IMG/VR virus record: IMGVR_UViG_3300029220_000012
Source: a virus
Strand: one strand, 5' to 3'
DNA length: 45,172 nt
Part shown: in pieces, positions 600 through 45,172 of the stretch
How the letters are laid out: the number at the start of each line of letters is the position of its first letter
Numbering within the stretch: the stretch's first letter is position 1
The notes under the pieces: model-generated
What the model was told of the DNA's origin: nothing
Databases searched by the model: none
Seen by the model: only the letters and a program-made list of their open reading frames with translations
Translations under genes and position numbers: made by a program

Positions 600-1682
600 T
601 TATATGATGTTAGCCAGGGTTTCCGCTGCGCGCTCATCGTCACCAGGCATTACGTGGCTGTAGGTGTTGAGCGTCAGATTTGCAGTGCTGTGGCCGAGGC
701 GCTGCTGCACCGTCTTGTAGCTGGCACCGTGCTGCAGCAGGAGCGAGGCGCTGGTGTGACGCAGACTATTGAGGCAGAAGTCTTTCGGCATATCTGCGTT
801 TTTGCCGTAGCGCTTGACGAGCTTGCTTATTGCGTCAGGATTGAGCGGTCTGCCGTGCTCTCCCGGGAAAAGGAGGCCGTATGGCTGCCACAGCGCGTCG
901 CTCATGGCCTGCAGTCGGACGGTCCTTATCTGTGCCTTAATGAGCGGAAGAATCGCCTTAGGCAGGCTCACAGTGCGCCAGCTGTCCTCTGTCTTAGTGC
1001 TTGCGCCAATCTCACCGCCACCTTTGGTACGCAGGTTGGTCTGCCGGACGGTAAACGTGCACCGCTCCAGGTTTACGTCCTGATAGCGCAAACCAAGAAT
1101 TTCACTGCGTCGCATGCCGCTGGTAGCTGCCAGCTTGATGAGCAGCTGGTGCGCGGGATCAGTGATGACGGAGAGCAGCTTTGTTACCTGTGCCTGAGTA
1201 AGAGCCACCCACTCGCGCTTGCGGGTAACCTTTGGCTTTTTGATTTGTAGCATGGGATGCTTTGCAAGCACTCCGTCAATAACTGCTTGGGTAAGCAGAG
1301 CCTTGAGCGTTACATAGATATGCTCAACGGTGCGGCTGGCAAGCTTTGCTGACAGTGCGGCTATAAAGTCGCGGATATTGGCTGGCTGCAGATTGCAGAG
1401 CGGGAAGTCGCCGAGCTCCGGCTTGATGTGCACCCGGATGTGAGACTCAATCGTTGCCCAGGAATTTTTGCGTATGGCTGCGTGCTGGACGACCAGGTAA
1501 TGGTCGCACCAATCTTTGAGCAGCATGCCGCTGCTGTAGGTCCCGCTGCGTTTGGCAATCTTGAACTCCTGCACCTTGCGGTCAAGCTCTGCAGATGACT
1601 TTGCGGTGAAATAGTACTTTTTGCCGAGGTACGTCACTGTGGTGGCGTAGCGGCCGTCGGCGCGTTTCTTGTATTTTGCCAT
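600..1682 (-). CDS. int: Tyrosine recombinase (phage integrase)
   Basis: C-terminal catalytic signature LRHTSASLLLQHG...LGHSTANLTLNTYSHV (R, H-x-x-R, Y). GGAGGG RBS. Adjacent to the tRNA-like core. Confidence 0.95.
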   Translation of the reverse strand: MAKYKKRADGRYATTVTYLGKKYYFTAKSSAELDRKVQEFKIAKRSGTYSSGMLLKDWCDHYLVVQHAAIRKNSWATIESHIRVHIKPELGDFPLCNLQPANIRDFIAALSAKLASRTVEHIYVTLKALLTQAVIDGVLAKHPMLQIKKPKVTRKREWVALTQAQVTKLLSVITDPAHQLLIKLAATSGMRRSEILGLRYQDVNLERCTFTVRQTNLRTKGGGEIGASTKTEDSWRTVSLPKAILPLIKAQIRTVRLQAMSDALWQPYGLLFPGEHGRPLNPDAISKLVKRYGKNADMPKDFCLNSLRHTSASLLLQHGASYKTVQQRLGHSTANLTLNTYSHVMPGDDERAAETLANII

Positions 1683-3295: not shown

Positions 3296-3383
3296 CAAGG
3301 AATCGACTTTTTGCAAAAAAAGTTGCGCAATATGCGTTGACAAATAGCTTTAGTCATGGTATTATAGTTGCATAAAATGCAAC
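3280..3383. promoter_or_regulatory. Operator cluster of GTTGC-N7-GCAAC type dyads
   Basis: 3367-3383 is the perfect dyad GTTGCATAAAATGCAAC. 3280-3296 (TTTGCGCAAAATGCAAC) and 3322-3338 (GTTGCGCAATATGCGTT) are degenerate copies. All lie between the divergent cI-like and cro-like genes. Confidence 0.65.
3337..3365 (+). promoter_or_regulatory. Early rightward promoter (TTGACA-17 bp-TATTAT)
   Basis: Consensus -35, 17-bp spacer. The perfect operator 3367-3383 covers the expected transcription start. Confidence 0.7.
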
Positions 3384-5100: not shown

Positions 5101-5991
5101 GTGAGCTTATTTAATAGAGCCGAACGTAAGAAAGCTTTTTTAAAAATTGCTATTACTGGCGTAAGCGGTAGCGGTAAAACGTACAGTGCTTTACAGCTTG
5201 CTCAAGGTCTGGGAGGTAAAATTGCTATGATTGACACCGAGAACGGCAGTGGCGAGCTTTATAGTAGCCTTTGTGATTACGATGTTGCTCCAATGAGTGC
5301 GCCATTTTCTCCCGAAAAATATATTGAATACATACACGAAGCGGAACAAGCAGGATATAGCGTATTGATTATTGATAGCTTGTCTCACGCTTGGGCAGGA
5401 GAAGGCGGTTTACTGGAATTTGTAGATAAAAAAGCTGCTGCTAGCCGAAGCGGAAATAGTTTTGCTGCGTGGAAAGACGCAACTCCGAAACAAAATCGTT
5501 TGATTGACGCCATTTTGCAATCTAAAATGGATATCATTGTATGCATGAGAAGCAAACAAGCATACGAAATAATTGAAAATGATCGTGGCAAGAAAATGCC
5601 GACGAAGATGGGGTTGGCACCTATACAGCGCGATGGCCTTGAGTATGAATTTACAATCATGTTTGATATTGGCATAGAGCGTCATATGGCAACCGCAACC
5701 AAAGATAGAACTGGAATGTTCAAGGACTGGTGCGATGTCATTTCGCCTCAAGTAGGAGAAATGATTAGAACGTGGTCTAACGGCGGCGCAGATGTTACTG
5801 AGGACGGTTACGTTAAAATTGAGCAAGAAAAAGTCATGGTTAGGACCAGAAATGGCCTGACTGATATTGTTACTCTGTCATATGAGCAGATGCAGCAATT
5901 GTTAGCATCATCTAAATACGCATTGGCTCATAAGGCAATAAGGGAACGTGTTGATAATATTGATGCTATGCAGGAAGAAGAAAGAAGGTAG
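5101..5991 (+). CDS. AAA-type ATPase, Sak4/AAA_24-like recombination protein
   Basis: Walker A GVSGSGKT, Walker B VLIIDS. GTG start after AAGGAGG. Next to ssb. Confidence 0.7.
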   Translation: MSLFNRAERKKAFLKIAITGVSGSGKTYSALQLAQGLGGKIAMIDTENGSGELYSSLCDYDVAPMSAPFSPEKYIEYIHEAEQAGYSVLIIDSLSHAWAGEGGLLEFVDKKAAASRSGNSFAAWKDATPKQNRLIDAILQSKMDIIVCMRSKQAYEIIENDRGKKMPTKMGLAPIQRDGLEYEFTIMFDIGIERHMATATKDRTGMFKDWCDVISPQVGEMIRTWSNGGADVTEDGYVKIEQEKVMVRTRNGLTDIVTLSYEQMQQLLASSKYALAHKAIRERVDNIDAMQEEERR

Positions 5992-9433: not shown

Positions 9434-9542
9434 AATCTGTCTGGTGTTTGCAGTGCTGATCAGCATTGTGTGGATAGTGAGCCTGACGGTGTTAGTTGGT
9501 TGCGGTGCTATATGGGCGCTGCAGAAGTTAGGAGGAATGTAA
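9423..9542 (+). CDS. 39-aa single-TM small protein (not in ORF track)
   Basis: Overlaps the previous ORF by 11 nt. Its stop abuts ATG 9543. TM segment ICLVFAVLISIVWIVSLTVLVG. Confidence 0.35.
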   Translation: MLSKICLVFAVLISIVWIVSLTVLVGCGAIWALQKLGGM

Positions 9543-9995
9543 ATGTTCATTAAAACAAAAAACGGAGACTATGTGAACTCTAAGAATATCGGTACATTAA
9601 AAATCGTACGTTATGCTGGCAATTTTAACGTTATTGCAGACTGCACCGGCTATGGCAGCGAATATTGCTTCTACACAAGTGCCAAGAAGGAAGACGCACA
9701 AGCGTATATGACCTTGATGGTGAACCGCCTGGATGAGGTGGAAGCTGCAACCATGCAGTACCCGCGTTGCGCTATCCTCAAGGTGTCGGAGTCTACTGTT
9801 GATGCAATGCGTTATAGCTATCGCAATCGCCCGCTCCAAAGCGAGCCGCAGCATGCAGCCAGCAAGAACACTAAGCTGTCCGCAATGCTGAATGCGCTTG
9901 TTGATGACTTCGCCGCATCCGGCGACACAGACAATCTCCTGAAGATTAATGCATACATTCGCATGTATCTGCAAAAGGAGGCTAACCATGAATAA
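9543..9995 (+). CDS. Hypothetical protein
   Basis: AGGAGGAATGTAA precedes the ATG. 150-aa ORF, no motif recognised. Confidence 0.7.
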   Translation: MFIKTKNGDYVNSKNIGTLKIVRYAGNFNVIADCTGYGSEYCFYTSAKKEDAQAYMTLMVNRLDEVEAATMQYPRCAILKVSESTVDAMRYSYRNRPLQSEPQHAASKNTKLSAMLNALVDDFAASGDTDNLLKINAYIRMYLQKEANHE

Positions 9996-12330: not shown

Positions 12331-12610
12331 TCCGTGGCCTGATTGTACCGACAGCGAGTTCTGGGGGCAGCTGCTACCAAGTGCTGCCCGCCATGACCAT
12401 AAGCTGTATGTTAAGCTCATCGGTCTGCGCTTTGCCGGAGCAGAGCTGTTGCCTAGTGCACGCTTCGGGCTGCGCCTGGTCATGGCTAACAAGGCGACGG
12501 TGACTCAGCAGGAGGCGAGGGAGCTGCTTGCTCCCCACTCTGAGCTGTTGCTTAATTTATTTTTACACATAGGAGGTGGCGCAGGTGGACAACAAAAAAC
12601 TGATCCATGA
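12293..12610 (+). CDS. Questionable ORF filling the gap before the regulator gene
   Basis: Only an open frame. Overlaps both neighbours, no clear RBS. ATG 12482 is an alternative start. Confidence 0.3.
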   Translation: MAGWLSLGSVVSDPWPDCTDSEFWGQLLPSAARHDHKLYVKLIGLRFAGAELLPSARFGLRLVMANKATVTQQEARELLAPHSELLLNLFLHIGGGAGGQQKTDP

Positions 12611-13094
12611 CACTGTTGTAGCGACGCTGGCTGCCTTAAATAGCCAGCCTAAGCCGCAGGATTGCTACAAGGCAACGGAAGCACGGCTGTATGCTTACTC
12701 GACGCTGCGCGCGAACATTGAGCAGTACAAGCTTGATATCCGTGACCTGAAGACGGAGCGTGTCACAGAAAAATCTAAAGACATTACCTGCTGGGGCGGC
12801 GCAAGTTCTCGCCTGACGCCCGAAGAGAAGCAGCAGGCACGCATTATGGCTGTAGAAGTTAAGCTGGCGCGTGATCAGGCGGAAGTTGATAAAATTGACC
12901 GCATCTTGAACAGGCTGGAAGCAAGCGAGGATGCGGTGGCGGTAGACCTTATCCGTCAGGCGTATTTTTTCTGCGTGCCTTTGGATGATATTGCGCTGCG
13001 TGCAGGTGTGTCGCTCTCGACCATCCAGCGCAGGCGTACGCGCCTGGTGCGGCAGCTAGCGTTGATGTTATATGGAGCGGAGGCGTTGATGTAA
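12585..13094 (+). CDS. Sigma-70 region-4-like transcriptional regulator (RinA/ArpU-type late activator candidate)
   Basis: C-terminal HTH DDIALRAGVSLSTIQRRRTRLVRQL. GTG 12585 lies 8 nt after AGGAGG. Confidence 0.6.
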   Translation: MDNKKLIHDTVVATLAALNSQPKPQDCYKATEARLYAYSTLRANIEQYKLDIRDLKTERVTEKSKDITCWGGASSRLTPEEKQQARIMAVEVKLARDQAEVDKIDRILNRLEASEDAVAVDLIRQAYFFCVPLDDIALRAGVSLSTIQRRRTRLVRQLALMLYGAEALM

Positions 13095-13788: not shown

Positions 13789-14214
13789 ATGAGTAAAAAT
13801 CTTCTCCCAGAAATCGCTAAGATGCTGGATGTAGAGATGTACGAAAAATTTAAAATCGAGGGCATGAGCTCTGACCTGGTTTTCCGAATCGGTGTAGACG
13901 GACTCGAAATGGAACGTTTTGACTATGCTGAGGATGACCGTATATGGGTGACTCTTGCTTCGTGCAATTTTGTTGATTTGTTGACTGGTAAGGCAAAAAT
14001 TGTTAAACTGCCGTGGAAGCCTGCTTATCGTCAGAAGTATTGGACTTTTGGCTTAAAAGATGGTATTTGGGTAGTTGTACCGAGAGAGTGGGAAGATTAT
14101 CCTGCTGAAATTCTTTTAGCAGACAAAGGATGGACATATCGCACACGTGAAGAAGCCTGCGCCGCTTTGCCTGGAGTGGCGAAAGAAATAGGTGTTGAGT
14201 TTATAGTTAAGTAG
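13789..14214 (+). CDS. Hypothetical protein
   Basis: RBS GAGAGGTG. 141-aa ORF. Confidence 0.7.
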   Translation: MSKNLLPEIAKMLDVEMYEKFKIEGMSSDLVFRIGVDGLEMERFDYAEDDRIWVTLASCNFVDLLTGKAKIVKLPWKPAYRQKYWTFGLKDGIWVVVPREWEDYPAEILLADKGWTYRTREEACAALPGVAKEIGVEFIVK

Positions 14215-14312
14215 GACTCTAAATTTATAAAGCAGGCACCTACTCAACGTTTCCTGATGAAATTCACGATGAAGTCGACATCATTTTTCCGGAAGGCTGC
14301 CACGAAGTAAAA

Positions 14313-14453
14313 ATGCGTGACGACACCGCCGCCATCGAGTGGCCGGACGGACACATTACATTGTCCACCGAAATTTTCACGGAACACCGCGGTGGTACGG
14401 CAGTGCCCTATGTGGTTGACTGCAGCGGTCAATTCCCTAAAAAATTTACTTGA
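14313..14453 (+). CDS. Possible short ORF or gene remnant (open frame from 14223 without a canonical start)
   Basis: The frame 14223-14453 reads protein-like (FPDEIHDEVDIIFPEGCHEVKMRDDTAAIEWPDGHITLSTEIF...). The only ATG is internal at 14313 and has a weak RBS. Confidence 0.3.
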   Translation: MRDDTAAIEWPDGHITLSTEIFTEHRGGTAVPYVVDCSGQFPKKFT

Positions 14454-14468
14454 AAGCTAAAAAATGAC

Positions 14469-14497
14469 TTGAAGCAGTGAAAAAAAAGCGGTATAAT
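14469..14497 (+). promoter_or_regulatory. Promoter P6 (TTGAAG-17 bp-TATAAT, preceded by AAAATGAC)
   Basis: Near-consensus hexamers. Shares the ATGACTTG motif of the promoter family. Confidence 0.7.
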
Positions 14498-14503
14498 ATA
14501 ACC

Positions 14504-14635
14504 ACGGAGAAGTGTCGATAAAAGCGGCATTCGCCTGCCACTTCTCGTTGCGAAGCGGTGCGTATTTTGACTGAATGCGCACCGCTTTACTATATTGTGT
14601 ATGTAGCGTCTGGCTTTTAGCCGGGCGCTTTTTTT
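14504..14635 (+). ncRNA. Candidate ~130-nt structured RNA or leader, class unknown
   Basis: No credible ORF or RBS. Hairpins at 14507-14546 (8 bp, GAGAAGTG/CACTTCTC) and 14553-14587 (12 bp). Terminator at the 3' end. Confidence 0.45.
14606..14635 (+). terminator. Intrinsic terminator
   Basis: Stem GCGTCTGGC/GCCGGGCGC (two G-U pairs), 5-nt loop, then T7 (14629-14635). Confidence 0.75.
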
Positions 14636-14719
14636 ATGCCCGGAAGCCGTAACCTAAGGGACGGAACATCCCTTATTATTCTCAAATCCTCAGCGGTAGT
14701 CCGGGCACCAATAAATGAC

Positions 14720-14748
14720 TTGCAATTATCGCGGGAGTGAGTTAACAT
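14720..14748 (+). promoter_or_regulatory. Promoter P2 (TTGCAA-17 bp-TAACAT)
   Basis: Family member with AAATGAC upstream and GAGT before the -10. The -10 overlaps ATG 14747. Confidence 0.55.
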
Positions 14749-15766
14749 GCTTATAAGACCTTTAATTATTGCTGCGAGAATTTTGGATGAAGATTATCCG
14801 AAAGACCCGAATCCTGAAAATTGGCGTACTATCAGTGGTGCAAAAGTGCATCTGAACGAAAAAGGTCAGATTGACGGTGGTGCTGGCAGTAAGTTTAATA
14901 AGAAAAAATTCGGCAGCAATTTTAGTGCTCAAGAAGGTTTTTCTGGAGAATATGCAGCGCCGAACTCTTCTGAGGAAAAATCGCCTATCAAAAAAGCAGC
15001 TTCTGTCTTTACTGAAGCATCTGTACAGCCATACAATGCCCAGGAGAGTAATTATCCGTTCCGTAAATCAAATTACACTAAGGCGCATAAGGATACTGCT
15101 GTGTGGTGCAAATCCATGGAAGAATCGAAGAAAAAATTTGATGCGCAAGCTCTTACTGTCTGGGAATCTGCAAATCATGAAGAACGTGAAGCTATTAAAA
15201 AATATACGGCCGAGTATGAGCAATTTAATGACCCTTTGCGCGGTTATGAATACGGGACTGGCCAATATAAAGGTGTAGGGAGTATTGACTTTGAGAATAT
15301 TGGCAATAATAGTTATGGTAAATTAAAACCTGGCGAAGCTAGAGACCTAATCACAAATATGACCAACTACATTGACCGTAGTGCTTTTGATGAGGATATC
15401 TGGCTGCAGCGTGGTTGCAGTTTTATAGGCATGGATAAATTTTTCAATCTCCGAAAGCCGATGCAAGACTACACTCTTGATGAGCTGAGAGCTGAAATTT
15501 TAGGTACTAAACCCACAGAACATGGTTTCATGTCTTGTGGCGCTGCCAAAGGTACAGGCTTTGATAAAAAACCAGTTATTCTTAATATTTATGCTCCAGC
15601 AGGAACTAAAATGGCTTATACTGCTAATTTTTCTATTTTCGAAGAAGAAAATGAAATGGTTTTGCAGCGCGGCACGCAGTTTCGCGTTGCAAAAGTAGAA
15701 GAAAAACCTGGCGAAGGCTTCTTTATTGACCTTGAGGTCGTTGGTTACAATATACAGAAAGTGTAG
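14747..15766 (+). CDS. Mono-ADP-ribosyltransferase, C3/VIP2-like (R-S-ExE class)
   Basis: Arg motif WLQRGCSF, STS-position FMSCG, ExE motif EENEMVLQRG. Start ambiguous: ATG 14747 (SD GGGAG 14733-14737) lies inside P2, and TTG 14783 is the first start reachable from a P2 transcript. Confidence 0.85.
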   Translation: MLIRPLIIAARILDEDYPKDPNPENWRTISGAKVHLNEKGQIDGGAGSKFNKKKFGSNFSAQEGFSGEYAAPNSSEEKSPIKKAASVFTEASVQPYNAQESNYPFRKSNYTKAHKDTAVWCKSMEESKKKFDAQALTVWESANHEEREAIKKYTAEYEQFNDPLRGYEYGTGQYKGVGSIDFENIGNNSYGKLKPGEARDLITNMTNYIDRSAFDEDIWLQRGCSFIGMDKFFNLRKPMQDYTLDELRAEILGTKPTEHGFMSCGAAKGTGFDKKPVILNIYAPAGTKMAYTANFSIFEEENEMVLQRGTQFRVAKVEEKPGEGFFIDLEVVGYNIQKV

Positions 15767-16006: not shown

Positions 16007-16020
16007 TGTTAAATAAATGA

Positions 16021-16049
16021 CTTGAATGTTTTAAGTATTAGAGTTAACA
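16021..16049 (+). promoter_or_regulatory. Promoter P3 (TTGAAT-17 bp-TAACAT)
   Basis: AAATAAATGACTTG is identical to P4. GAGT before the -10. Confidence 0.55.
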
Positions 16050-16062
16050 TAACAACAATCAA

Positions 16063-16322: not shown

Positions 16323-17624
16323 ATGAAAATCATTGATATGCCCATCGGCGATGTGATCCCGTATAAAAACAATCCGCGGCGCAATGATGCAGCCGTGAAG
16401 CCGGTTATGGAATCTCTGAAGGAGTTCGGCTGGAAGCAGCCTATTGTTATCGACAAGAATAATGTTATCGTCTGTGGGCACACCCGCTTGCGTGCCGCTA
16501 AACGACTTAAGATGAAGACTGTGCCGTGCGTGATGGCGGATGACCTTACGCCGGAGCAGATTAAAGCGTTCCGGCTGGCGGATAATAAAACCGCCGAGTT
16601 TGCAAGCTGGGACATGGATATGCTCAACAGCGAGCTGCTCGACATCAAAGGTATAGACATGGGCGACTTTGGCTTCGACATGCCGGAGCCTGAACCGGAG
16701 GAGGATGCTTTTGATGTGGATACAGCGCATGAGGAAGCTGCTAAGAATCCTGTAACTACGCCGGGCACGCTGTACCAGCTCGGGAACCATCGCTTATTAT
16801 GTGGCGATTCAACAAATCGTACTGATGTAGCACGTTTATTGGGGGGGCAAATGGTTGACATGGTGTTTACCGATCCTCCCTATAATGTCGCTTACCAAGG
16901 CGGCACAAAAGACAAGCTCACCATTAAAAACGATTCCATGAGTGAGGCTGAATTCAAAAACTTTTTAGATGCAGTGTTTGATAATTATTTTGCGGCGATG
17001 AAGCCCGGCGCGTCCTTTTACGTGTGCTACGCTAGTCGCAGTGCAGTCGAGTTCCGACAGGCTATTGTTGATGCCGGTCTGCTGCTGAAGCAGGACCTTG
17101 TCTGGTGCAAGAACACGTTTACTCTGGGAAGGCAGGACTACCAATGGCAGCATGAGCCTATCCTTTACGGCTGGAAGCCTGGCGCGAAGCACCGCTTTTT
17201 TGGCGGTCGTAAGCTGTCAACAGTTATCCCAGACAACTATCCGGTGGAGGTTGGCTACGATGCCGATGGGCATCAGCTCATCCACATCAGCATCGGGCTT
17301 AAGACCGTCTGTCTGCGTGCCGATAACGTAGAGGCTGTGGACACAGAAGAGGTTAACAGCGTAATCCATGTTGACAAGCCCACGCGCAACGCCGAGCATC
17401 CCACCATGAAGCCGATTGCCCTCTGTGCTAAGTGCATCAAGAATAGCTGCCAGCAAGGTGATGCTGTGCTTGATTTGTTTGGCGGCTCTGGCTCCACGCT
17501 CATTGCCTGCGAGCAAATCAACCGCCAATGCTACAGCATGGAGCTTGATCCTGTGTACTGCGATGTCATCGTTAAGCGTTGGGAAGCTCTCACCGGCAGG
17601 AAGGCCGAGGTAATCGGTGGCTAA
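16323..17624 (+). CDS. DNA methyltransferase (N6-A/N4-C type) with N-terminal ParB-like nuclease domain
   Basis: ParB-like VCGHTRLRAAKRL. Catalytic FTDPPYNV. SAM-binding VLDLFGGSGST. Confidence 0.9.
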   Translation: MKIIDMPIGDVIPYKNNPRRNDAAVKPVMESLKEFGWKQPIVIDKNNVIVCGHTRLRAAKRLKMKTVPCVMADDLTPEQIKAFRLADNKTAEFASWDMDMLNSELLDIKGIDMGDFGFDMPEPEPEEDAFDVDTAHEEAAKNPVTTPGTLYQLGNHRLLCGDSTNRTDVARLLGGQMVDMVFTDPPYNVAYQGGTKDKLTIKNDSMSEAEFKNFLDAVFDNYFAAMKPGASFYVCYASRSAVEFRQAIVDAGLLLKQDLVWCKNTFTLGRQDYQWQHEPILYGWKPGAKHRFFGGRKLSTVIPDNYPVEVGYDADGHQLIHISIGLKTVCLRADNVEAVDTEEVNSVIHVDKPTRNAEHPTMKPIALCAKCIKNSCQQGDAVLDLFGGSGSTLIACEQINRQCYSMELDPVYCDVIVKRWEALTGRKAEVIGG

Positions 17625-18039
17625 TGAACAGAACCTCAATCCTTGCCGAAGCAAGAGCGAAGCAAGAGAAAGAGGTGCTGCTGGTGGTGTAAAATCTGGT
17701 GAAGCCCGGCGCCGCAAACGTGCTATGCGTGAGGTCCTTGATGACCTGCTGCAGATGCCGCTCAAACGTGGCGAGCTGAAGAATGTTGAGTGCCTGGGTG
17801 ACCTGATGGGGCCGAACGGTAAGATTAACCTGCTGAACGGTAAAATCAATGTAACCGTGGAGCAGGCTGTGTTGCTTGGTCAGGTCGTGCTTGCTATGCA
17901 GGGCAATACCAAGGCTGCGACATTCTTGCGTGACACGGCAGGGCAGAAAATTCTTAAGGATGCCGAAGAGCAGTCTCAATATGAGGACGATGGCTTTACC
18001 GACGCAATCAAGCGCAGTGCAAAGGATGTGTGGAAATAA
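17617..18039 (+). CDS. Terminase small subunit (putative)
   Basis: Basic N-terminus GGVKSGEARRRKR and the motif AMQGNTKAATFLRDTAGQK resemble small terminases. Immediately upstream of TerL. Confidence 0.65.
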   Translation: MANEQNLNPCRSKSEARERGAAGGVKSGEARRRKRAMREVLDDLLQMPLKRGELKNVECLGDLMGPNGKINLLNGKINVTVEQAVLLGQVVLAMQGNTKAATFLRDTAGQKILKDAEEQSQYEDDGFTDAIKRSAKDVWK

Positions 18040-19379
18040 TGGGCATCGTTGGCAGGCTGCGCAGTATTATCAAACCTGTTATCAAGTTCTATGAGTTTAG
18101 TAAAAAACAAATGCAAATCTTGACGTGGTGGTGTGAAGATTCTCCCTACCACGATTACAATGGCATCATAGCTGACGGCTCCATCCGTGCTGGTAAAACG
18201 GTAGCGATGGCCGTCTCTTTTGTCATTTGGGCTATGGACAGCTACGATGGCCAGAATTTTGCCATGTGCGGTAAAACCGTAGGCAGCTTCCGGCGTAACG
18301 TCTGGAAATGGCTCAAGCCTGTACTGCTGGTGCGTGGCTATCAGGTGGAAGAATCACGCACGGAAAACCTTATCGTGATAGCTCGCAAGCAAGGCAGCAC
18401 GATGAAGCTGAATTACTTCTACGTGTTCGGCGGCCGCGACGAATCCTCGCAGGACCTTATTCAAGGTATTACTTTGGCTGGTCTGTTTTGCGATGAGGTT
18501 GCGCTCATGCCTGAATCATTTGTAAATCAGGCATCCGGCCGCTGCTCTGTGCCGGGCGCTAAGCTGTGGTTTAACTGCAACCCGGACAGCCCGATGCACT
18601 GGTTCCTGTTGCGCTGGATTGAGAAGTGCGACGAGAAGCGCTTGCTGCATATCCATTTCCTGATGGACGACAATCCGTCGCTATCTGACGAGGTACGTGA
18701 ACGCTACCGGACGATGTATTCCGGTGTGTTCTACCGACGCTTTATTCTAGGCGAGTGGGTAATGGCGCAGGGCGCTATCTATCGTGATGCGTGGAGTGAT
18801 GAGCTGCTCTTTGGTGATGATCAGCTGGAGTACCTGCTTAAAAATCTGCACATCATGCGCCGCTCCATTACGATTGACTATGGCACCGTGAACCCGATGG
18901 TGTATCTGGACGTGCTCGATGATGGGCGCGACCTGTGGTTTATCCGCGAGTATTATTGGGACAGCCGTGCTGAAGAAAAGGAGAAGGACAACAGCCAGTA
19001 CGCCGACGACCTGCTTGAGTTCGTGCGTGGTGTGGAGCTGTGGCCGACAAATGTGGTCATAGATCCATCTGCAGCCAGCTTTAAGATTGAGCTGCGTAAC
19101 CGTGGCTTGCGTGCAAAGGAGACGGTGGAAACAATCAACGCCGACAATGATGTCATTGAGGGCATCCGCAAGGTGAACACGCTGCTAACCCGTCGCCGCA
19201 TCCATTTTTATTGTGGCTTAGTGCACACGCTGAAGGAGATGCAGTCCTATTGTTGGGACGACAAGGCTCTGCAGCAGTCTGGCAAGGAGAAGCCTATTAA
19301 AGTAGCTGACCATGCGCCTGATGCGGTGCGCTACTATGTATCAACAGTCATCAGGCCAAGGAGGATAGCAAATGTCTAA
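18039..19379 (+). CDS. terL: Terminase large subunit
   Basis: Walker A-like ADGSIRAGKT, Walker B-like LFCDEV. TAATG overlap start at 18039 (track start at 18030). Confidence 0.9.
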   Translation: MGIVGRLRSIIKPVIKFYEFSKKQMQILTWWCEDSPYHDYNGIIADGSIRAGKTVAMAVSFVIWAMDSYDGQNFAMCGKTVGSFRRNVWKWLKPVLLVRGYQVEESRTENLIVIARKQGSTMKLNYFYVFGGRDESSQDLIQGITLAGLFCDEVALMPESFVNQASGRCSVPGAKLWFNCNPDSPMHWFLLRWIEKCDEKRLLHIHFLMDDNPSLSDEVRERYRTMYSGVFYRRFILGEWVMAQGAIYRDAWSDELLFGDDQLEYLLKNLHIMRRSITIDYGTVNPMVYLDVLDDGRDLWFIREYYWDSRAEEKEKDNSQYADDLLEFVRGVELWPTNVVIDPSAASFKIELRNRGLRAKETVETINADNDVIEGIRKVNTLLTRRRIHFYCGLVHTLKEMQSYCWDDKALQQSGKEKPIKVADHAPDAVRYYVSTVIRPRRIANV

Positions 19380-20847
19380 AAGAAAACGCAGGCGCGCCCT
19401 TGACAAAGCTCCTGAGCCGCAGCCAATACGCAGCAGGGCGCTCGACGCGTTTAGTAACGTACTGGCTCGTTTGGGTGCTGGTACTCCGAATCTGTTGGAA
19501 GGCACGGAGTACAGTCTGCAGCGCATGTCGCGTGATTTCAACACTCTAAATGCTCTCTACCGTGAGAGCTGGATTGTCCGTCGTATCATCGACGTTATCC
19601 CGGCGGACATGCTTAAAAATTGGATAACGATTACGAGCGGTCTGGATCCCGATGTAGAGAAGCGGCTCAGTCTTACTTTGCGCCGTACTCAGCTCATTGA
19701 CAAGCTTAAGCGTGGCATGCAGTGGGGCAGGCTCTACGGTGGCGCGTTAGGCGTGATGCTGGTCAAACACCAAGGCTACGACCTTAGCCAACCGCTGCAG
19801 CTTGACTGGATAATGCCTGGCGATTTCGCAGGGCTGCTTATCTTCGACCGCTGGAACGGAGTTAACCCATCCAGCGAACTCATCGAAGATATTAGTGATC
19901 CTGATTACGGTTTTCCAAAATATTACACTGTGACTGATCCTGCCGGTGGTGGCTCCGTGAAGATTCATCATAGCAGGGTAGTTCGTTTTACTGGTAACGA
20001 ACTACCTTTTTGGGAGGAAATTGCCGAGATGCAGTGGGGTGCGTCGGTCGTTGAGTCTATTTTTGATGAGCTGCGTAAGCGTGACAATGTAAGCTGGAAC
20101 ATTGCGCAGTTGACCTTCATGGCGAACATCCGCGTGCTTAAAATGCAGGACTTAGGTCAGCTTCTGGCGGCAACGGACAACGAGTCGCAGGCTGAGCTGC
20201 TGCGAACGCTGGAAGCGCAGAACATGCTGCTGAACAATATGGGCATGCAGGTTATGGATGCTGCAGATGGTCTGGAAACACACCAGTATACTTTCGGCGG
20301 CCTTGCTGACTGCTATCAGCAGTTTATCATGGACATCAGCGGCGCTGCTGAAATTCCGGTGACGCGTCTGTTCGGGCGCTCTCCCTCTGGCCTTAATGCT
20401 ACAGGCGAGAGTGACCTACAGAACTACTACGACATGATAGCTGAGAAGCAGGAGTCTTATCTGCGTCCTATCTTGAACAAAGTGCTTCCGCCGTTCATCA
20501 TCTCGACACTAGGCAGCCTGCCTGATGACTTTGATTTTGAATTCGACCCGGTTGCAGAGCCTACCGACAAAGAGCGCGCCGACCTTGCCAAGTGTGGCAC
20601 AGACAATGTTGTGGCTGCCTACAATGCTGGTCTTATCTCTCAGCGCACTGCTCTGAAGGAGTTGAAGCAGCAGAGCGAGCGCACCGGTGTCTGGACGAAC
20701 ATCACCGATGAGGACATCGAGCGCGCATCTGACTCTGTGGAGCCGCCTGGCGAGATGGGAGGCATGTTTGGCGACATGGGCGGTGGCGAGGCTGCTGGTG
20801 CTGTTGGTGTTGAACCTCAGCAAAATAAACCGCCTGAATCTGAATAA
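19372..20847 (+). CDS. Portal protein
   Basis: 491 aa, overlaps the TerL stop by 8 nt. Position and size. Resembles DUF1073-type portals from memory. Confidence 0.8.
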   Translation: MSKRKRRRALDKAPEPQPIRSRALDAFSNVLARLGAGTPNLLEGTEYSLQRMSRDFNTLNALYRESWIVRRIIDVIPADMLKNWITITSGLDPDVEKRLSLTLRRTQLIDKLKRGMQWGRLYGGALGVMLVKHQGYDLSQPLQLDWIMPGDFAGLLIFDRWNGVNPSSELIEDISDPDYGFPKYYTVTDPAGGGSVKIHHSRVVRFTGNELPFWEEIAEMQWGASVVESIFDELRKRDNVSWNIAQLTFMANIRVLKMQDLGQLLAATDNESQAELLRTLEAQNMLLNNMGMQVMDAADGLETHQYTFGGLADCYQQFIMDISGAAEIPVTRLFGRSPSGLNATGESDLQNYYDMIAEKQESYLRPILNKVLPPFIISTLGSLPDDFDFEFDPVAEPTDKERADLAKCGTDNVVAAYNAGLISQRTALKELKQQSERTGVWTNITDEDIERASDSVEPPGEMGGMFGDMGGGEAAGAVGVEPQQNKPPESE

Positions 20848-20852
20848 ATGAC

Positions 20853-20881
20853 TTGCAATAATTATACATGAGAGTTAATAT
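20853..20881 (+). promoter_or_regulatory. Promoter P4 (TTGCAA-17 bp-TAATAT)
   Basis: Starts at the portal stop codon (TAAATGACTTGCAA). GAGT before the -10. GGAGG and ATG 20913 follow 32 nt later. Confidence 0.55.
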
Positions 20882-42355: not shown

Positions 42356-42589
42356 ATGGATGTCACTCGTAAGCGAGCGCGTGCGTGGCTGCGTATGTGC
42401 TCACGAATCGAACTTGACCGTGCCATGGAAGAAGCACGGCTTACGGAGCAGCAGCGGGAAGTCATCGAGTTAATGTTTACCCGAGGATTGTCCGTGGTTG
42501 CCATCAAATTACGCTGTAATATGGACGAGAGTACAGTAAAACGTATCCTTGCCCGCTCTTACGACAAAATCTACAATGTCATCATGTAA
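42356..42589 (+). CDS. Small sigma-70 region-4-like HTH regulator
   Basis: AGGAGG 7 nt before ATG 42356. LTEQQREVIELMFTRGLSVVAIKLRCNMDESTVKRILARS. Confidence 0.6.
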   Translation: MDVTRKRARAWLRMCSRIELDRAMEEARLTEQQREVIELMFTRGLSVVAIKLRCNMDESTVKRILARSYDKIYNVIM

Positions 42590-42592
42590 CCT

Positions 42593-42622
42593 GCACCCCA
42601 GTTAACCTGGGGTGCTTTTTTT
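42593..42622 (+). terminator. Intrinsic terminator
   Basis: Stem GCACCCCA/TGGGGTGC with a 7-nt loop, then T7. Confidence 0.85.
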
Positions 42623-42690
42623 ATGCCCTTTTATTGCGCTTTTGCACATCGCTTTTACCTATACAATGTAAACAGAAATGAGGTGAGCTT

Positions 42691-44378: not shown

Positions 44379-44396
44379 AAAATTTAAATTTATGAC

Positions 44397-44425
44397 TTGC
44401 AATAATCAAAAAGTAGAGTTAATAT
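44397..44425 (+). promoter_or_regulatory. Promoter P5 (TTGCAA-17 bp-TAATAT)
   Basis: TTTATGACTTGCAAT upstream and GAGT before the -10. 34 nt upstream of ATG 44459. Confidence 0.55.
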
Positions 44426-45073: not shown

Positions 45074-45172
45074 GGGGATTTATGCCTTTTGGGACTGCGG
45101 TCTAAAAATGGTCTTGAAAACTAGCGAAGGTGCAAGCCTTCCGTGGGTTCGAATCCCACCCTTTCCGCCATT
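45074..45172. repeat. Terminal direct repeat, copy 2 (tRNA-Ser-like fragment at 45108-45170)
   Basis: Identical to 1-99. Confidence 0.95.

Follow-up and report, generated by a model that had tools for sequence, protein, structure and literature searches.

A candidate late-operon leader with a terminator and an exchangeable small-RNA slot in Phascolarctobacterium prophages

Introduction

In lambdoid phages, the late genes are headed by the PR'-tR' unit, a strong sigma-70 promoter followed within ~50-260 nucleotides (nt) by one or more intrinsic terminators, which gives a short non-coding RNA such as 6S RNA or StxS; the latter is a terminated late leader that functions as a small RNA (sRNA) upstream of Shiga toxin, the toxin moron lying between the unit and the late structural and lysis genes (PMC7547250). 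Here we describe a locus of similar build at positions 14464-14712, plus strand, of IMG/VR virus record IMGVR_UViG_3300029220_000012 (45,172 nt; this whole stretch of DNA was analysed and is called the window below). Like PR'-tR', it combines a sigma-70-type promoter ahead of late genes, a terminator at a comparable distance and a toxin moron, an ADP-ribosyltransferase (ART) gene, between the unit and the late genes. Unlike PR'-tR', it was found without a Q-family antiterminator or a recognisable Q-binding site, the conserved upstream regulator being a protein like sigma-70 or extracytoplasmic function (ECF) sigma factors; its host is a Negativicute and not an enterobacterium; the leader has exchangeable cargo and a conserved stem-loop after the terminator; and the late operon of the window also has family promoters of its own. 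We do not claim membership in the lambdoid late-leader family.

Two other kinds of prophage element resemble parts of the locus. At IsrK of Salmonella prophage Gifsy-1, a leaky terminator gives a short isoform and a read-through isoform that is the mRNA of the downstream genes, and translation of the long isoform is unlocked when the short one pairs with it in trans (PMC4825925). The locus described here likewise has a short terminated RNA and a read-through RNA that would serve as mRNA of the genes downstream, but the short RNA showed no pairing with the ribosome-binding-site regions downstream, and which genes lie downstream differs from phage to phage. Morons are promoter-gene-terminator units of prophages that are independently transcribed (PMC3594210). 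Our locus has in common with them a promoter and terminator of its own, presence, absence and replacement among near-identical phages, and a location at a module boundary; it differs in that the cargo is RNA instead of protein, only the insert changes while the frame is constant, and the frame persists when empty.

The put RNA of HK022 and other processive antitermination RNAs that act in cis are stem-loops that closely follow a phage promoter and precede terminators. Stem-loops lie between promoter and terminators here as well, but the second is dispensable and replaceable by a tRNA, and the first is followed by a U-run in most classes of the locus; the RNA locus resembled put or similar RNAs neither in sequence nor in Rfam searches. 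In phage 933W, Plunkett et al. are said to have described, in 1999, tRNA genes in the interval from PR'/tR' to stx. Sister phages of the window (class B, see below) also have a tRNA gene in the putative late leader beside a toxin gene, although that tRNA descends from a host-like tRNA-Ser(GCU), has a new acceptor stem, carries UCA or CCA as its anticodon and does not serve rare codons; the window itself is without a tRNA.

We lean, with modest confidence, towards reading 14464-14712 as a terminated non-coding leader of the late (packaging) operon that doubles as a slot for small RNAs in Phascolarctobacterium prophages.

Results and discussion

A predicted, structured non-coding transcript between P1 and T1

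All the features that an earlier sequence-only reading had listed for this region were found where it had placed them (Table 1). Promoter P1, with a perfect -10 box and the motif ATGACTTG overlapping its -35 box, has a predicted start near A14504. The earlier claim that P1 is the window's best promoter does not hold: P1 scores 10/12, and an early promoter at 3337 (TTGACA-17-TATTAT, with TG) scores 11/12. From the geometry of P1 and the intrinsic terminator T1, the ends of the primary transcript would be those given in Table 1. Folding of the 133-nt RNA gave -59.7 kcal/mol (z = -6.4), a value that none of 200 shuffled sequences equalled.

Table 1. Positions of the features of the RNA locus and its neighbouring genes in the window
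Feature	Position	Strand	Remarks
Sigma-70/ECF-like 172-aa regulator	12576-13094	+	phrog_36, E = 2e-13; TIGR02937, E = 6e-6, below its cut-off
Promoter P1	14464-14497	+	motif ATGACTTG 14464-14471; -35 TTGAAG 14469-14474; 17-nt spacer; -10 TATAAT 14492-14497
Predicted primary transcript	14504-14635	+	~130 nt, ends at T1
Hairpin 1, long form GAGAAGUG/CACUUCUC	14507-14546	+	8-bp helix 14507-14514/14539-14546; perfect only in this window
Hairpin 1 core, conserved 5' stem-loop	14511-14531	+	14511-14517 with 14525-14531; loop AUAAAAG
Hairpin 2, exchangeable cargo	14552-14588	+	16-bp stem; apical loop UGACU/UUGACUG
Single-stranded linker	14589-14604	+	3' block UGUKUAUGU (14596-14604) kept in all cassette classes
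Intrinsic terminator T1	14605-14635	+	11-bp stem 14605-14629; 3-nt loop; U7 (T7 at 14629-14635)
Domain 2	14636-14710	+	closing stem GCCCGGA 14638-14644 with TCCGGGC 14700-14706; inner hairpin 14655-14675; hexamer 14675-14680; tail ACCA 14707-14710
Promoter P2	14715-14749	+	phage-family TTGCAA-17-TAACAT (-10 at 14743-14748); GAGT before -10
ART gene	14747-15766	+	PF03496, E = 1.4e-20; PHROG moron ARTs
ParB-methylase, small terminase, large terminase and portal operon	16323-20847	+	12-16 nt after domain 2 in ART-less relatives

The perfect 8-bp form of hairpin 1 is present in the window, as had been noted, but across 18 versions with the same type of cassette (class A, see below) only 81.5% of alignment cells were paired, and two of its nine pairs were unpaired in 11/18 and 17/18 of these versions. 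The local helix AAGUGUCG/CGGCAUUU is conserved, with 94.4% of cells paired in class A. This core comprises 8 pairs (7 of them form in the window), each paired in 12-14 of 14 representative versions, with changes from U-A to U-G and from G-U to G-C to A-U; a single change from G-C to U-A lies in the extension just outside the core. The core is homologous to an 11-12-bp hairpin of the other classes. In classes B and C and in cargo-less loci, a U-run after hairpin 1 gives it a terminator-like look.

Hairpin 2, described before as a 12-bp hairpin, is also present, but its stem is longer and includes G-U pairs (Table 1). Alone it folds at -25 kcal/mol (z = -7.6), and 98.4% of its cells were paired across versions. 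The stem showed one compensatory change from G-C to U-A and changes from U-G to C-G, U-G to U-A and G-C to G-U, while its tip occurred in four versions (UUUUGACUGAA, UUGACUGAA, UAAGACUAAGG and UCUUUCCUGGA). In one locus (L175) hairpin 2 is deleted, and in sister phages a tRNA or another RNA is found in its place. Because of the G-U pairs and the wobble-compatible or compensatory changes, the helices are assigned to RNA of the plus strand. No co-variation of the hairpin 2 tip with the hexamer of domain 2 or with the downstream gene was detected. A processed antisense immunity RNA of the P1 c4 or P4 CI type was considered and rejected, as no loop was complementary to the co-transcribed downstream mRNA above chance.

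The view that the unit, on the plus strand, is non-coding was borne out, since relatives conserve no small open reading frame (ORF). A small protein, either of 25 aa (hydrophobic; ORF 14575-14652) or of 34 aa (ORF 14636-14740), has almost no probability in our estimate. Both ORFs are open in the window, and the 34-aa frame is open throughout the main type of domain 2, but neither is preceded by a Shine-Dalgarno (SD) sequence. The 25-aa ORF spans T1, loses its ATG in the hairpin tips of three loci (L016, L027 and L032) and is frame-shifted by variants in T-run length. In the 34-aa ORF, 7, 10 and 8 variable sites fall at codon positions 1, 2 and 3, respectively, with no third-position excess; the ORF holds no constant frame with respect to the gene that follows, and the second type of domain 2 differs in length.

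The RNA had also been thought to fit no known class, and an Rfam scan of the whole window and six related loci returned nothing at gathering score. With E up to 10, it gave sub-threshold matches to trpB (30 bits, cut-off 59 bits), the L20 leader (21 versus 59) and the S15 leader (26 versus 39.5 bits, on the A-rich promoter), together with generic ones to PrrF and Hfq sRNAs.

Cassettes are exchanged within a constant frame

With the ART, hairpin 2, T1 and the 5' module as queries, ~100 loci with T1 were recovered from IMG/VR, human-gut metagenomes and two metagenome-assembled genomes (MAGs); they fall into 65 distinct versions, with 51 distinct cassettes among them. The constant parts are a 5' block, made up of the -10 box and the first ~25 nt of the transcript, and a 3' block, the stretch from ~9 nt ahead of T1, through T1, to the end of domain 2. 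Between them lies an exchanged cassette. Class A carries hairpin 2, as in the window. Class B carries a 92-nt type-II tRNA with anticodon UCA (CCA once), called tRNA-SeC by ARAGORN and matched by RF00005 at 38 bits under permissive filters; in class B', this tRNA body bears a 6-nt loop. Class C has another element of ~115 nt. One locus (L022) contains a tandem of C and B', and in two others (L001 and L145) the cassette is empty, leaving two terminator hairpins in tandem between the promoter and domain 2. The promoter/terminator frame was present in all recovered loci, a count biased by the fact that all of them were found by searches with the frame.

Cargo was present, absent or replaced while the flanking genes were 97-100% identical. 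The breakpoints of exchange are located in the conserved flanks, and in L190 the 3' arm of hairpin 1 is deleted between short direct repeats, which suggests that cassettes may change by homologous or illegitimate recombination and not at a dedicated site.

The unit could instead be a stand-alone RNA moron, in which P1, cargo and T1 would be self-contained and active in the lysogen or during infection, the product would be a trans-acting sRNA, a sponge or a decoy (for instance a mimic of an anticodon stem-loop), T1 would be an insulator and the late genes would be transcribed independently. We consider this explanation unlikely, although it deserves attention; it is partly compatible with a late leader, and the two do not exclude each other. 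A promoter and terminator of its own is what defines a moron (PMC3594210), and the presence/absence and replacement polymorphism of the cargo, the tRNA at the equivalent place in sister phages and the promoters that the downstream operon has in the window all agree with it, as does the hairpin 2 stem, held by compensatory and wobble changes beneath a hypervariable tip in the pattern of a specificity loop. However, the best antisense targets of the RNA in the phage genome were 10-11 nt long (E at least 1.7), with none longer than 11 nt and none beyond chance; L175 does without hairpin 2; and the packaging operon of ART-less phages has no other promoter. Because the cargo-less versions retain the promoter, the double terminator and domain 2, the constant core looks regulatory and not like a cargo gene.

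The tRNA-bearing sisters (L003, at 5255-5347, and L008, L013, L045, L169, L007 and L011) carry it in the slot that corresponds to 14524-14596 of the window. Its D- and T-arms match host tRNA-Ser(GCU), the acceptor stem is new and the discriminator is A. The anticodon loops are UUUCAUA, UAUCAUA and UUUCAGA (anticodon UCA), UUCCAUA (CCA) or loops of 6 nt. Genome-wide recoding of TGA was considered as the explanation of a tRNA(UCA) and rejected, as nine phage gene families contained zero in-frame TGA; two in-frame stops seen in this check were TAG, located in non-coding or frame-shifted stretches. The class C cargo (L004, L018, L033, L053 and others) consists of an extended hairpin 1 and a second terminator-like hairpin, contains a mini-ORF with an SD sequence (GAGAGGA-N7-ATG CGG TAG) and had no match in Rfam.

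T1 lies between P1 and the packaging genes

The sequence-only reading had tied the leader to the ART and to NAD+. This tie did not hold: in sister phage L003 the ART is 99.7-100% identical, yet a tRNA replaces hairpin 2. Among distinct versions of class A, a gene with the N-terminal domain (N-domain) of the ART follows 14 times and the ParB-methylase gene directly 6 times; for B and B' combined the two follow 16 and 2 times, respectively, and for class C 17 and 4 times. The ART is absent from 12 distinct versions, in which the ParB-methylase/terminase/portal operon comes directly after domain 2. By these counts, cassette type and downstream gene assort independently. Because of this independence, and because only the N-terminal part is common to many of the alternative downstream genes, we regard the ART gene with P2 as a moron whose insertion has separated the RNA locus from the packaging operon. 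Residues 1-119 of the ART (14747-15103) are 40-51% identical to downstream genes of other phages that have different C-terminal parts, a sharing that looks like the architecture of polymorphic effectors.

Three ART-less loci (L040, L054 and L153) extend far enough downstream to be informative about transcription. In these, the SD sequence and ATG of the ParB-methylase gene stand directly after domain 2, the next family promoter is 5.4-5.7 kb downstream, past the portal gene, and neither a family promoter nor a site scoring at least 10/12 was found between T1 and the methylase gene. Transcription of the packaging genes in these phages thus has to cross T1, and in most classes the terminator-like hairpin 1 as well. 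P2 is missing from the phages whose methylase gene directly follows domain 2.

In the window, the start codon of the ART gene at 14747, confirmed by N-terminal conservation across homologues, overlaps the -10 box of P2, and its SD sequence GGGAG (14733-14737) is likewise embedded in this promoter. Because the ATG sits inside the P2 -10 box, the ART probably needs a transcript that starts upstream of P2.

The helix that competes with T1 is not conserved

T1 folds at -17.8 kcal/mol and is fully paired in 52/52 distinct versions, through four variants of its 3' arm. As had been pointed out, CCGGGC (14621-14626) in that arm can instead pair with GCCCGG (14638-14643), at -10.8 kcal/mol. This alternative helix is fully paired in 41/52 versions and broken in 11/52; in particular, the natural 3'-arm variants CTAGGC and CCAGGC keep or improve the pairing of T1 while breaking the alternative. 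The minimum-free-energy fold of the read-through RNA retains T1 as well as domain 2.

In intrinsic termination, the decision falls before sequence 3' of the U-tract is transcribed. The competitor strand lies 3' of the U-tract and is not yet transcribed at that moment, so it cannot sway termination at T1. The attenuator or riboswitch logic that had been built on the two helices, in which a cis element perhaps sensing NAD+ or ADP-ribose would control the ART, or the RNA would be a partner of the enzyme, fails on this point and is largely refuted by the comparative data; we hold it to be extremely improbable, even though the alternative pairing exists and translation of the ART probably depends on an upstream transcript. 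Besides the breaks in 11 of the 52 versions with T1 intact in all and the fold of the read-through RNA, the cassette and the ART assort independently, with 12 distinct versions devoid of the ART. No Rfam family, the NAD+ riboswitches included, was found even with E up to 10, which leaves no match of a known class for a ligand domain, and the segment upstream of T1 where it would be sought is swapped between phages. NAD+-related regulation of the ART can be set aside as a misleading lead.

Domain 2 is the 5' untranslated region of whichever gene follows

Downstream of T1, domain 2 forms the 5' untranslated region of the next gene, whichever gene that is, and folds with z = -3.5. In a second type of domain 2 (L001, L022, L145 and L180), the closure GCCC...GGGC, the loop motif AUUCUCA and the tail ACCA are retained; the inner stem of this type differs, with compensatory changes from U-A to G-C. 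Within the otherwise ~95% conserved domain, the hexamer at 14675-14680 is hypervariable without indels (ATTATT, TCTGAC, TCTGTT, GCTATT, GTCAAT, GTTAAT, GCCAAT and others). A pairing partner for it was looked for and none was found. The hexamer adjoins a 6-bp inverted repeat, AAGGGA/TCCCTT.

The palindromes could also act at the DNA level, as sites of protein binding or recombination such as a pac or cos site or a cassette-exchange site with a variable hexamer. Their position just upstream of the packaging genes, the inverted repeats, the hexamer beside one of them and the exchange that clearly occurs at the locus fit such an element. We nevertheless think it very unlikely: several helices contain G-U pairs, which are A-C mismatches on the opposite strand, the changes are wobble-compatible as expected for plus-strand RNA, T1 has a canonical U7 tail, and the breakpoints in the conserved flanks, like the L190 deletion between short direct repeats, point to no dedicated site.

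Domain 2 is closed by a 7-bp acceptor-like stem (GCCCGGA/UCCGGGC) followed by unpaired ACCA. The tail varies, with ACA in L030 and CCC in L145, so that CCA is not strictly conserved. A relic of a tRNA, or of a host tRNA, was rejected as the origin of the domain, as no tRNA model matched within 14200-15000 (E up to 10) and ARAGORN found none in the window; no convincing alignment with host tRNAs was obtained.

Some elements of the locus look like parts of tRNAs. Two hairpin 2 tips, UUGACUG and UUUCCUG, are 7 nt long and anticodon-like, and the cargos derived from tRNA-Ser have UCA or CCA anticodon loops with a pyrimidine at position 37, or loops of 6 nt. It is conceivable, but in our opinion improbable, that the slot serves specifically to express RNA 'weapons' resembling parts of tRNAs. 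Hairpin 2 and the tRNA cargos could then be decoys or substitutes directed at anticodon nucleases of the host or of rivals, or at UGA decoding, and domain 2 (GCCCGGA...UCCGGGC-ACCA) could mimic an acceptor stem at which RNase P would free a small RNA from the late mRNA.

At one other place in the window (42590-42628), a terminator after the small sigma-like gene is followed by the 15-mer GCTTTTTTTATGCCC, which also occurs at the junction of T1 and domain 2 (E = 0.007). No closure like that of domain 2 was found after this terminator.

Promoters P1 and P2 and the promoter family

The motif ATGACTTG of P1 had been taken for a family motif. It does occur in 5 copies against 1.8 expected, but 4 of 100 shuffled sequences also reached 5 copies; the motif that truly recurs is the extended ATGACTTGnAAT...GAGTTAAYAT. 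It belongs to a phage-specific promoter family, (A)TGACTTGcAAT-N-GAGTTAAYAT (TTGnAn-17-TAAYAT), whose sites stand ahead of five operons (231-268, 14715-14748, 16017-16050, 20848-20881 and 44392-44425) and with which P1 has only the -35 half in common. Two sigma-70/ECF-like proteins, the 172-aa regulator of Table 1 and a 77-aa protein (42356-42589), are candidates for reading the family. All cassette classes conserve the -10 box of P1 and the sequence transcribed first, whereas in sister phages the upstream half of P1 is different, with direct repeats of TTCACAAAG and an extended -10 box, TGGTATAAT. The TTCACAAAG repeats were not enriched in this window.

A proposed course of transcription and the points against it

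We propose that the sigma-70-type P1 would fire into the 5' stem-loop, the exchangeable cargo, T1 and domain 2, and that most transcripts would end at T1 and give the RNA of ~130 nt, which may itself be active. The genes past T1, ancestrally those of methylase, terminase and portal and in this window the inserted ART gene first, would receive transcription only by read-through, T1 being passed by leakage, with an antitermination factor or with the sigma-like protein. The arrangement would work like the PR'-tR' unit of lambda and the Stx phages, whose terminated by-product is 6S RNA or StxS; the position of the by-product would have been turned into a slot into which sister phages load different small RNAs, a tRNA among them.

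If so, the locus is a candidate outside the enterobacteria for the design in which a terminated late leader serves as a small RNA, in a host that is an abundant Negativicute of the human gut, and the leader unit would stand once more beside a phage-borne toxin gene, as in the Stx phages. Different RNA cargos within one constant promoter/terminator frame in near-identical phages would amount to an exchangeable RNA slot, and its cargos include a tRNA with anticodon UCA in phages without TGA recoding. Promoter, terminator and cargo form modules with clear boundaries, which may be of use as expression parts for Phascolarctobacterium.

Several observations weigh against this proposal. The packaging operon of the window has a family promoter of its own at 16017, which makes read-through of T1 not obligatory here, and the family promoters at 14715 and 16017 together lessen the need for it. 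P1 of sister phages is without a -35 box and has direct repeats, and because of this P1 may there be activator-dependent and not constitutive. Searches of the early ORFs with Pfam, PHROG and NCBIfam returned neither a Q-family nor any other known antiterminator. The gene immediately upstream of P1 differs between phages, and the AlphaFold model of its commonest occupant, a 141-aa protein (13789-14214), is confident (predicted local distance difference test, 89.5), yet it matched no solved fold in the PDB.

The covariation on which an RNA-level function would lean is also limited. Relatives had been suggested as a check on the helices; compensatory and wobble changes were indeed seen in them, but they are sparse, and domain 2 did not exceed shuffled controls. 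In its main type, 97% of cells were paired, variation was small and the shuffle controls were not beaten. Mean column identity is ~92-95% (92-93% in the class-A transcript, 95% in domain 2), and the covariation is sparse because of this low divergence.

The window, its host and the genes upstream

Positions 1-99 of the window are identical to 45074-45172, a 99-nt direct repeat at both ends that contains the 3' half of a tRNA; an integrase gene adjoins it (600-1682, minus strand), and a 39-nt core of the repeat is the 3' end of tRNA-Ser(UGA) in genomes of Phascolarctobacterium succinatutens. We take the repeat to be the att site. The closest well-binned relatives of the terminase are from Negativicutes, and one homologue of an upstream protein carries a name from P. 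succinatutens. On the strength of the terminal att repeat, the terminase relatives and this homologue, the window is a complete temperate phage or prophage, ~45 kb, of a human-gut Negativicute. Two MAGs bore other labels, "E. coli" (L022) and "Bacteroidaceae" (L001), which were rejected as binning artefacts; the att core and the protein name indicate Phascolarctobacterium. No match to the RNA locus was found in INPHARED phages or complete E. coli genomes.

The genes are arranged in the order integrase and repressor (minus strand), early replication operon, 172-aa regulator, small ORFs and RNA locus, followed by ART, ParB-methylase, terminases, portal and structural genes. By synteny, nearly all relatives conserve the gene of the 172-aa sigma-like regulator upstream of the RNA locus. 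In L164 the regulator gene ends ~100 nt ahead of P1, and in L194 a conserved 86-aa ORF, a neighbour of the regulator, stops just ahead of P1. The 141-aa protein, most often encoded 0.4-2.9 kb ahead of T1, is one of a family of >200 members to which neither Pfam nor PHROG gives an assignment.

In more distant Negativicutes prophages (terL 66-75% identical), the motifs of the RNA locus are absent. One of them, a Selenomonadaceae prophage (L059; terL 75%), has a strong intrinsic terminator at 9519-9552, immediately upstream of its small-terminase gene.

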